A stretch of DNA of 64,000 bases from Escherichia coli 042 (GTDB taxonomy: Bacteria > Pseudomonadota > Gammaproteobacteria > Enterobacterales > Enterobacteriaceae): the NCBI RefSeq assembly GCF_000027125.1, contig NC_017626.1. One strand, 5' to 3'. Below the pieces are notes generated by a model. The model had not been told where the DNA came from. It searched no databases and saw only the letters and a list, made by a program, of their open reading frames with translations. The first letter of the stretch is position 1; each line of letters opens with the position of its first letter. Position numbers and translations under genes: made by a program. Shown piece after piece: positions 16,604-17,051 of this stretch.

Positions 16604-16672
16604 TTTTAAGTTCTACCAGGCCGGGTGAGGCGTTTACGCCGCATCCGGCATGAAACATGCAAACAATTCAAA

Positions 16673-16697
16673 ATGCCGCGCTCTGCGGCGTTTTTTT
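16673..16697 (+). terminator. glnS rho-independent terminator
   Basis: GCCGCG-ctct-GCGGC hairpin followed by TTTTTTT; REP-like palindrome just upstream (about 16621-16652). Confidence 0.7.
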
Positions 16698-17031
16698 CTG
16701 CTTTTCTTCGCGAATTAATTCCGCTTCGCAATTTATCCATAAAATAAATTTAAAATCACAAAACATAATTAAATAAAATGTAACCGCTTTCATCTTGCTG
16801 GAATTTCACGTTTTTATTCTTCTGCAAGCCTTTCAACTGCAAACTTAAGCCTTGTAACAAAAATCATCAAAATATGTGCGGTTGCTCATGTTCTTACATT
16901 CTGGTTACAGAAAGAGATTGATAATTCGCGTCGCGAAAAATAGTCTGTTCCTGTAGTCAGCGAGACTTTTCTCAACGCTACTTTTTTAATTTTTATTTTT
17001 TTCGCTGTTCACCTTTGGTGCAGCAATTTAT

Positions 17032-17044
17032 ACGTCAAAGAGGA
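17032..17044 (+). promoter_or_regulatory. Candidate ChiX sRNA pairing site overlapping the chiP Shine-Dalgarno
   Basis: ACGTCAAAGAGGA immediately upstream of the chiP ATG; recalled as the chiP leader segment bound by ChiX, pairing not computed. Confidence 0.45.
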
Positions 17045-17051
17045 TTAACCC

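Follow-up and report, generated by a model that had tools for sequence, protein, structure and literature searches.

Our analysis supports, with a probability of about 95%, the notion that positions 17033-17044 of the window (the whole 64,000-nt stretch of Escherichia coli 042 DNA that was analysed) are the site at which the small RNA ChiX binds the chiP mRNA, and that this site lies within a 99-nt leader at 16953-17051. The assignment of a ChiX silencing site on chiP is correct but already known: it is the ChiX-chiP system itself and not a relative of it. Indeed, all the sequence-level features that define a ChiX target on chiP were tested and found in the window, and the in-vivo features have been published for K-12 and Salmonella. 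The finding confirms the standard ChiX-chiP circuit in E. coli 042, a circuit that serves as the reference case for a constitutive sRNA that silences a "cryptic" porin, for relief by a decoy mRNA and for sRNA-triggered Rho polarity. Its practical value is that the spacer can be annotated correctly, from the REP element and the terminator through the CRP-like and NagC sites and the promoter to the ChiZ leader and the ChiX box, and the synonymous constraint in chiP, the Kosakonia box and the leader insertions described below are small testable extensions of a well-studied system.

The window corresponds to the nagE-glnS-chiP-chiQ-fur region of E. coli. The gene identities are well defined: glnS (14939-16603) matches TIGR00440 at 1068 bits, and the coding sequence of the chitoporin gene chiP (17052-18458, plus strand) matches the NF047822 "chitoporin ChiP" equivalog at 852 bits, against a cut-off of 750, and is called likewise in the RefSeq annotation. 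It is followed by chiQ (18508-18834, plus strand), annotated as a lipoprotein gene co-transcribed with chiP. The RefSeq annotation of near-identical E. coli genomes agrees with the glnS and chiP calls. Moreover, a 1.1-kb query over the glnS-chiP junction matched 5424 of 5426 complete E. coli genomes, always at loci annotated as glnS and chiP and with 99.9% identity in the best matches; the additional short matches in each genome are due to the REP element carried by the query.

Pairing of ChiX with the chiP ribosome-binding site

The 13-mer ACGTCAAAGAGGA occupies positions 17032-17044 and is followed by TTAACCC and then by the chiP ATG at 17052, so that 7 nt separate it from the start codon. 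Within it, CGTCAAAGAGGA (17033-17044) is the exact reverse complement (12/12) of ChiX nucleotides 45-56 (UCCUCUUUGACG). The resulting pairing box on the plus strand, CGUCAAAGAGGA, contains the Shine-Dalgarno sequence GAGG (17040-17043), located 8 nt upstream of the AUG. The helix is limited to 12 bp, given that A17032 faces ChiX G57 and U17045 faces U44. The initial annotation had placed a ChiX target at this 13-mer, immediately upstream of the chiP ATG; a 12-bp complement that covers the ribosome-binding site is indeed present there, but the first base of the quoted segment, A17032, stays unpaired.

The strength of this pairing was evaluated with the K-12 ChiX sequence as a query (84 nt, L001:305-388, recognised by Rfam sroB at 82 bits). 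Folded alone, ChiX forms a 5' hairpin, an A-rich single-stranded linker that carries the seed, and a terminator hairpin. When ChiX was co-folded with positions 16932-17111, with intramolecular structure allowed, exactly the 12-bp helix was formed and both ChiX hairpins were kept, for a net gain (ddG) of -19.9 kcal/mol. Dinucleotide-preserving shuffles of the target gave -4.4 +/- 2.1 with a best value of -10.7, and none of the 300 was as good (z = -7.4). An IntaRNA-style sum came to -15.2 kcal/mol, composed of -18.6 for the hybrid, +2.5 for opening the mRNA box and +0.9 for opening the ChiX seed, and the opening cost of the box is to be compared with a median of 4.75 for the 12-nt windows of the leader. 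A pairing prediction of this type had been proposed as the check on the initial annotation, and the duplex predicted by co-folding and by opening energies is a stable one. These two approaches were used in place of unrestricted duplex prediction. Run without restriction, the whole of ChiX against a 160-nt target gave a duplex of 69 nt at -45.5 kcal/mol, which was discarded as meaningless because intramolecular structure is ignored in it.

The box was also compared with the rest of the window. Across both strands of the 64 kb, it is the best accessible ChiX site, at -18.0 versus -12.9 for the runner-up. Ranked by naive duplex energy (ChiX linker and seed, local structure left aside), it comes sixth of about 12,800 windows, and with local structure taken into account the five sites above it drop to values of -2.6 to -12.9. 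A bare 12-nt complement of ChiX is not significant at the scale of the window, since about 0.6 are expected by our estimate in 128 kb (two strands), and a second one, composed of A and T only, lies at 62328-62339. What places the chiP box above chance is therefore the combination of its position on the Shine-Dalgarno sequence, its energy with accessibility counted, its conservation across genera and the published genetics.

ChiX itself is not encoded in the window, as had been noted earlier: Rfam gave no chiX/sroB match at the gathering score in the 64 kb, and a blastn-short search of the window for ChiX returned fragments of 10-19 nt only. In K-12, chiX is found at 507204-507287, about 200 kb from chiP. 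Of 5426 complete E. coli genomes, 5422 carry one copy of the gene, which is at least 99% identical in 5012 of them, and because it is thus near-universal in the species it is probably present in the genome from which the window derives. The promoter-leader segment at 16910-17085 is similarly widespread (5424 of the 5426 genomes, 4860 with at least 99% identity).

Conservation of the box across genera

A scan of a species-representative genome collection with ChiP yielded 80 loci, whose ChiP proteins are 83-100% identical and which belong to Escherichia, Salmonella, Citrobacter, Klebsiella, Raoultella, Enterobacter, Kluyvera, Kosakonia, Buttiauxella, Leclercia, Lelliottia, Trabulsiella and other genera. 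Among the 76 distinct upstream sequences, conservation is 92-100% over the 11-nt core GTCAAAGAGGA (17034-17044), 17-70% at most leader positions and 26-72% in the 7 nt between the box and the ATG. The full 12-mer is present in 50 of the 80 loci, the remainder having A or T in place of the 5' C. In the Salmonella diarizonae locus (L013) the box is identical (TATACGTCAAAGAGGATTAAC).

An uninterrupted run of 11 or more base pairs with the ChiX seed of E. coli is retained in 75 of 81 sequences, for which, assuming an E. coli-type seed, duplexes of 11 to about 18 bp and of -18.4 to -26.9 kcal/mol are predicted. In several genera the base that follows the box is A, and the pairing then extends to ChiX U44 and beyond. 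Genera that lack the 5' C often gain an A in the 3' flank, which extends the pairing on the other side. Moreover, conservation does not stop at the Shine-Dalgarno core but continues for 6-7 nt upstream of it, further than a translation signal alone needs.

The exceptions are one Leclercia locus, from a metagenome-assembled genome, with CGTCAATGAGGA, and five Kosakonia loci with CGTCCAGAAGGA or CGTCTAGAAGGA, for which duplexes of -12 to -13 kcal/mol are predicted. The Kosakonia box carries three substitutions (CGUCCAGAAGGA), and these values compare with -21 kcal/mol. Two causes can be envisaged for this divergence: the box may have co-evolved with a changed ChiX seed, or chiP may have escaped control by ChiX. 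If the Kosakonia ChiX seed is UCCUUCUGGACG (or UCCUUCUAGACG), it would be a case of natural compensatory covariation; if the seed is unchanged, a weakened control of chiP by ChiX is predicted in this genus.

The chiP leader and the spacer upstream of it

The glnS-chiP intergenic spacer, as delimited by ORF and family calls, extends over 16604-17051. With 448 bp and a GC content of 37.5%, against 51.9% for the whole window, it agrees with its first description as an A/T-rich spacer of about 450 bp; the GC content is 33.9% over 16701-17051. The K-12 spacer is longer (576 bp) because of 131 extra bp of REP/BIME sequence. The glnS-chiP synteny is kept in at least 65 of the 80 loci; the spacer measures 385-565 bp in these, except for one of 1269 bp.

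Most of this spacer is not leader. The chiP 5' untranslated region is the annotated sRNA ChiZ, which had been overlooked in the initial annotation: positions 16953-17051 (plus strand, 99 nt) are homologous to the K-12 ncRNA chiZ (b4808), annotated in RefSeq at 708236-708333 as a 98-nt RNA that ends just before the chiP ATG. All 98 positions are identical, and one inserted T is the sole difference between the two leaders, so that the leader counts 99 nt here and 98 nt in K-12 because one run has seven T instead of six. Adams et al. 2021 (PMC7815308) took GUAGUCAGCG as the 5' end in their primers for cloning chiP and ChiZ, and Santiago-Frangos et al. 2017 (PMC5606850) chose the same 5' end for their in-vitro RNA of chiP. 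By homology to K-12 chiZ, chiP transcription would thus start at G16953, and the length of 99 nt follows from the K-12 annotation, the primers and the in-vitro RNA, which all put the 5' end at this base. At the other extremity, the Term-seq 3' end of K-12 ChiZ was mapped to 708334, the A of the chiP ATG (PMC7815308); the -50/+10 listing convention of that paper was checked on a terminator in the same table.

The minimum-energy fold of 16953-17051 (plus strand) comprises a 5'-terminal stem-loop (16953-16981), a U/A-rich tract UUUUUUAAUUUUUAUUUUUUUC that remains unpaired (16982-17003), a second hairpin of the form GCUG..CACC UUU GGUG CAGC (17004-17024) and, 3' of the latter, a single-stranded tail in which the box lies. 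The U/A-rich tract is likely the site that binds the rim of Hfq. In CLIP-seq data (PMC5207318), the chiP 5' UTR shows an Hfq peak whose crosslink mutations fall in UA-rich sequence, and this sequence would correspond to 16982-17003.

A covariance model of the leader was built from 14 leaders. It scored 105 bits on the window and matched 53 of 80 sources (the window and 79 chiP loci) at E <= 0.01. In the model alignment, 90.6% of the cells are paired, against 75.1 +/- 0.9 in shuffles, none of 500 being as high. Double-sided changes occur in 12 of the 15 leader pairs: in all pairs of helices 1 and 2, which belong to the 5' stem-loop and have 94% and 85% of cells paired, and in three of the six pairs of helix 3, which forms the second hairpin and has 91% of cells paired. 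The covariation score is 0.456, versus 0.199 after shuffling and 0.05-0.18 with slid partners, on the understanding that the covariation figures lean toward structure, the alignment being fitted to the model. The slid controls argue that the leader structure is real. When 72 leaders were aligned by MAFFT and folded with RNAalifold, only a hairpin at the start codon was recovered; the upstream hairpins were missed because indels misalign them, a problem that the covariance model solved. No family of Rfam 15 covers the chiP leader.

The roughly 350 bp that precede the leader begin with a REP element and the glnS terminator; these are followed by AT-rich DNA upstream of the promoter, in which conserved blocks occur, and by a NagC operator over the promoter. 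The palindromic repeat GCCGGGTGAGGCGTTTACGCCGCATCCGGC (16620-16649) aligns to one of three REP-like units in the K-12 spacer and falls within a sub-threshold match to the REP-derived Rfam family naRNA4 (16619-16698, 35.4 bits); from these two results and from the REP consensus, we take it to be a REP element. The intrinsic terminator of glnS, found by a terminator scan as a GC stem followed by a T-run (16670-16700, plus strand), is 80-91% conserved in 74 non-Escherichia sequences. Three small spacer ORFs, at 16606-16740 (minus strand), 16625-16747 (plus strand) and 16668-16793 (minus strand), overlap the REP element and the terminator.

The chiP promoter probably consists of a -35 hexamer TTGATA (16918-16923), a 17-nt spacer and a -10 hexamer TAGTCT (16941-16946), on the plus strand, the latter ending 7 nt before G16953. 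Its bases are 80-100% conserved in the 74 non-Escherichia sequences, and conservation collapses after 16946. A sigma-70 consensus scan missed this promoter, its sole match (16750-16779) being at chance level. The core promoter is overlapped by the "ybfM proximal" NagC operator GATAATTCGCGTCGCGAAAAATA (16920-16942), which is 86-100% conserved and identical, letter for letter, to the operator in Table 1 of PMC3098098. It is a 23-bp quasi-palindrome with TT at -6/-5 and AA at +5/+6. With a NagC matrix built without it, it scores 22.2 bits and is surpassed in the window by the nagE operator only; that operator (12644-12666) and the nagB operator (12550-12572) served as positive controls for the matrix.

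Further upstream, a candidate distal NagC-type operator of the form TT-N9-AA, with the right half CGCGAATTAAT, might lie at 16697-16719. It is a weak candidate (9.2 bits with the NagC matrix), as are all the distal candidates, which score 9-13 bits. Nevertheless, TT at 16702-3 and CGCGAATTAAT (16710-16720) are 82-95% conserved across genera, and this right half is identical to that of the published chbB distal operator. Another conserved block, TGTAACAAA, is located at 16853-61. A CRP-like site, TGTGC-GGTTGC-TCATG, is found at 16875-16890, centred at -70.5 from the start site, and TATGTGC and TCAT (16873-89) are 100% conserved in the 74 non-Escherichia sequences. This site may act as a class-I-like CRP site; ybfM (=chiP) is listed as a CRP Genomic-SELEX target (PMC3105977).

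Alternative roles of the leader and its place in the circuit

The initial annotation had spoken of a long chiP leader. This title is unsupported because it equates the leader with the 448-bp spacer, of which only about 99 bases, from G16953 onward, are leader according to the three sources mentioned above. We consider it very improbable that transcription covers the whole spacer, starting from a promoter close to the end of glnS or reading through from glnS, so that the spacer would form one long 5' leader with more RNA control upstream of 16953. The promoter-like match at 16750-16779 that could serve it is no better than those in shuffles (1 found, 1.3 expected), a conserved intrinsic terminator stands after glnS, and the 5' end is set at G16953 independently by three sources. 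Such a leader might account for a spacer length kept at about 385-565 bp across genera and for the conserved blocks at 16710-16720, 16853-16861 and 16873-16892; however, conservation fits a -35/-10 promoter with an operator ending at 16946 and collapses beyond it, and the upstream blocks resemble protein-binding DNA (TT-N9-AA, TGTG-N8-TCA) rather than RNA helices. As for a conserved RNA structure or riboswitch family upstream of 16953, no Rfam family was found there beyond the sub-threshold REP-derived match. Still harder to sustain is the idea that the box is kept only as a Shine-Dalgarno or initiation signal, or as a site for another factor (e.g. CsrA at GGA), its complementarity to ChiX being incidental. 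AAGAGGA is a near-consensus Shine-Dalgarno, and part of the conservation of the box can be explained by the presence of this strong signal within it; bare 12-mer ChiX complements do arise by chance at the scale of the window. Against this, conservation covers the 6-7 nt upstream of the core (GUCAAA), up to the limit of the ChiX seed, and stops at both ends of the duplex, the loss of the 5' C is often offset by the 3'-flank A that extends pairing, and the box is the best accessible ChiX site in 64 kb. Moreover, this idea is already refuted by published compensatory mutations, which document ChiX-chiP pairing in Salmonella/E. coli, as cited in PMC7815308.

Evenly balanced, to our mind, is the possibility that the leader is chiefly a regulator itself: ChiZ, released by Rho-dependent termination or by processing, would titrate ChiX, and the box would be a sponge as much as a target. 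ChiZ has been described as an Hfq-dependent RNA of about 90 nt that is increased in a chiX deletion and sponges ChiX; it increases chiP mRNA and the expression of a chiP-lacZ fusion in cells that have chiX but not in those that lack it (PMC7815308), an effect seen, however, with overexpressed ChiZ. The K-12 ncRNA chiZ annotated exactly over the homologous 98 nt, the Term-seq 3' end at the A of the ATG and the conservation of the leader structure with covariation are consistent with this role, although sequence alone cannot separate a sponge from a target. The two readings are compatible and not exclusive.

For the target-site explanation, which we favor, the following circuit may be proposed. 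It has been reported that ChiX constitutively represses chiP when chitosugars are absent, that the chb mRNA acts as a decoy and triggers ChiX decay in the presence of chitobiose, and that NagC represses chiP and chb alike (PMC4098024). The block of chiP translation by ChiX is described as unmasking a Rho-dependent terminator within chiP and silencing chiQ (Table 2 of PMC12360218, citing Bossi et al. 2012). In E. coli 042, constitutive ChiX held by Hfq would thus anneal to the box and block ribosome binding, and the untranslated chiP RNA would be exposed to Rho, leading to termination inside chiP and to the silencing of chiQ as well. Chitosugars would lift the NagC repression exerted at the 16920-16942 operator over the promoter, and the induced chb mRNA decoy would pair with ChiX and cause its decay, so that chiP could be translated. 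The leader that is cut or terminated at the AUG would accumulate as ChiZ, and the same box would then sponge ChiX.

The closest known system is ChiX (MicM/SroB/RybC)-chiP (ybfM) of Salmonella and K-12, with the same gene, the same box and the same occlusion of the Shine-Dalgarno by an Hfq-bound sRNA; the primary work is that of Figueroa-Bossi 2009, Rasmussen 2009 and Overgaard 2009, as cited in PMC4098024 and PMC7815308. Nothing of substance differs from K-12: the spacer is 131 bp shorter, with fewer REP units, and this difference lies outside the transcript. The K-12 ChiZ (PMC7815308; b4808) has its homologue at 16953-17051, which is known here from its sequence. The chbBC intergenic decoy ("trap mRNA") is another component of this circuit and has a ChiX-complementary site that mimics the chiP box; unlike chiP, it is located in the chb operon, outside the window, and it destabilises ChiX rather than being silenced by it. 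In class II pairs such as MgrR-eptB, the sRNA sits on the proximal and distal faces of Hfq and the mRNA on its rim through a UA-rich leader tract, as in chiP, and the 5' fragment likewise ends just past the pairing site. In contrast to ChiZ, which rises when its sRNA is deleted, the eptB fragment falls (PMC7815308). Regarding transcription, the NagC-repressed promoters (nagE-nagB, chbB, glmU, galP) carry, as chiP does, a 23-bp TT-N9-AA quasi-palindrome over the core promoter, and the nagE and nagB operators are located in the same window as that of chiP.

The beginning of the chiP coding sequence (17053-17082, plus strand) is also under constraint: its codons are unusually conserved at synonymous positions, and it may fold into a hairpin in which the UG of the start codon takes part. 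At codons 2-10 (17055-17081), third-position identity is 96%, versus 61% for conserved-residue codons beyond codon 20, and this segment ranks first of the 460 nine-codon windows of chiP for synonymous conservation. The hairpin predicted by RNAalifold, U17053-A17079, begins one base after the mapped 3' end of ChiZ; across 72 sequences none of its 9 pairs is lost, each of the 33 single-side changes being compatible with pairing. Its stability is not exceptional (z = -1.17) and it has two alternative registers, and it is therefore not counted as an established structure. We advance only tentatively, and with considerable doubt, that the constraint on codons 2-10 reflects an uncharacterised cis element of the ChiX/Rho/ChiZ switch. 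It could be, for example, a structure that sets the 3' end of ChiZ or limits ribosome loading.

Insertions were observed in some leaders. In six loci, five labelled as Citrobacter and one (L027) labelled as an uncultured Raoultella metagenome-assembled genome, a palindromic repeat of about 123 nt is inserted upstream of the box, with 5 nt left between the two; the box is intact, and the leader reaches about 220 nt. This repeat, another copy of which is found elsewhere in a Buttiauxella locus, presumably resembles ERIC. In the assembly of E. coli O104:H4 FDAARGOS_348, an IS1 is located within the leader.

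The glnS-chiP spacer and the region upstream of the chiP promoter

The length of the glnS-chiP spacer depends on REP/BIME-type sequence lying directly after the glnS stop codon, of which K-12 (locus L003, 259-400) has 131 bp more than E. coli 042 (window 16604-16660), so that the spacer measures 576 bp in K-12 versus 448 bp in the window. The chiP transcript does not include this part, which varies between strains. Further downstream, the motif TATGTGC...TCAT (16873-16892) was 100% conserved among 74 non-Escherichia sequences and, judged from its sequence, resembles a CRP site, with its centre at -70.5 relative to the chiP start site. 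CRP SELEX targets have been reported to include ybfM, that is, chiP (PMC3105977). A second conserved block, TGTAACAAA, was observed at 16853-16861.

The NagC matrix had as positive controls the published operators of nagB (12550-12572) and nagE (12644-12666), both of which occur without a mismatch in the divergent region between nagE and nagB in the window. Upstream of chiP, 16697-16719 is a candidate distal NagC-type operator with a weak matrix score (9.2 bits). Its right half, CGCGAATTAAT, shows 82-95% conservation and is identical to the right half of the distal operator of chbB. The centre of the candidate is 223 bp away from the centre of the proximal NagC operator (16920-16942).

Insertions in the chiP leader

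A palindromic repeat, about 123 nt long and with a minimum free energy (MFE) of -52 kcal/mol, was observed in the chiP locus L021 (1360-1482) and also in L014, L022, L023, L025 and L027, that is, in six loci, five of them labelled Citrobacter and one (L027) labelled as an uncultured Raoultella MAG. We take this repeat to be ERIC-like. The insertion lies 5 nt before the ChiX box and brings the chiP leader to about 220 nt, and both the box and the Shine-Dalgarno sequence are still present in the repeat-bearing leaders. Another copy lies on the minus strand of locus L068 (3333-3442). The leader of the E. coli O104:H4 assembly FDAARGOS_348 (NZ_CP022086.2) contains an IS1 element (locus L084, 2600-3418), which sits between the promoter-proximal part of the leader and the ChiX box; this was the one genome of 5424 matching genomes in which coverage of the promoter-leader query fell below 80%.

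Variants of the ChiX box and a further ChiX interaction

The ChiX box, which lies at 17033-17044 in the window, is nearly invariant except in Kosakonia, where all five loci (L049, L050, L058, L059 and L067) have CGTCCAGAAGGA or CGTCTAGAAGGA at about 19 nt upstream of chiP, and in a Leclercia MAG (L052), where it reads CGTCAATGAGGA. When computed with an E. coli-type ChiX, the duplex of the Kosakonia box weakens to between -12 and -13 kcal/mol. Two explanations are offered: co-evolution of ChiX with the altered box in Kosakonia, or a relaxation of ChiX control of chiP there. Once accessibility was counted, the site at 32281-32311 on the plus strand ranked second in the window for interaction with ChiX (ddG -12.9 kcal/mol), with an interrupted helix; it is probably a chance match.

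Synonymous constraint in chiP and other RNA matches

Across many genera, third-position identity reached 96% in chiP codons 2-10 (17055-17081) versus 61% elsewhere, and this segment ranked first of 460 nine-codon windows by synonymous conservation. A possible hairpin predicted at 17053-17082 starts 1 base past the mapped 3' end of the sponge sRNA ChiZ and includes UG from the start codon. All substitutions seen in it keep the pairing, and its predicted stability is unexceptional (z = -1.17). Codons 446-457 (18387-18422), near the end of chiP and the beginning of chiQ, were second in synonymous constraint within the gene, with a majority-codon frequency of 0.90-0.93.

The search of the window against Rfam families, at the gathering score, also returned a cluster of seven tRNA genes (4845-5546, minus strand), three matches to the REP-derived naRNA4 (52420-52585, minus; 56913-56983, plus) and one to the sRNA ES036 (8305-8347, plus), all of which are unrelated to the chiP/ChiX finding.
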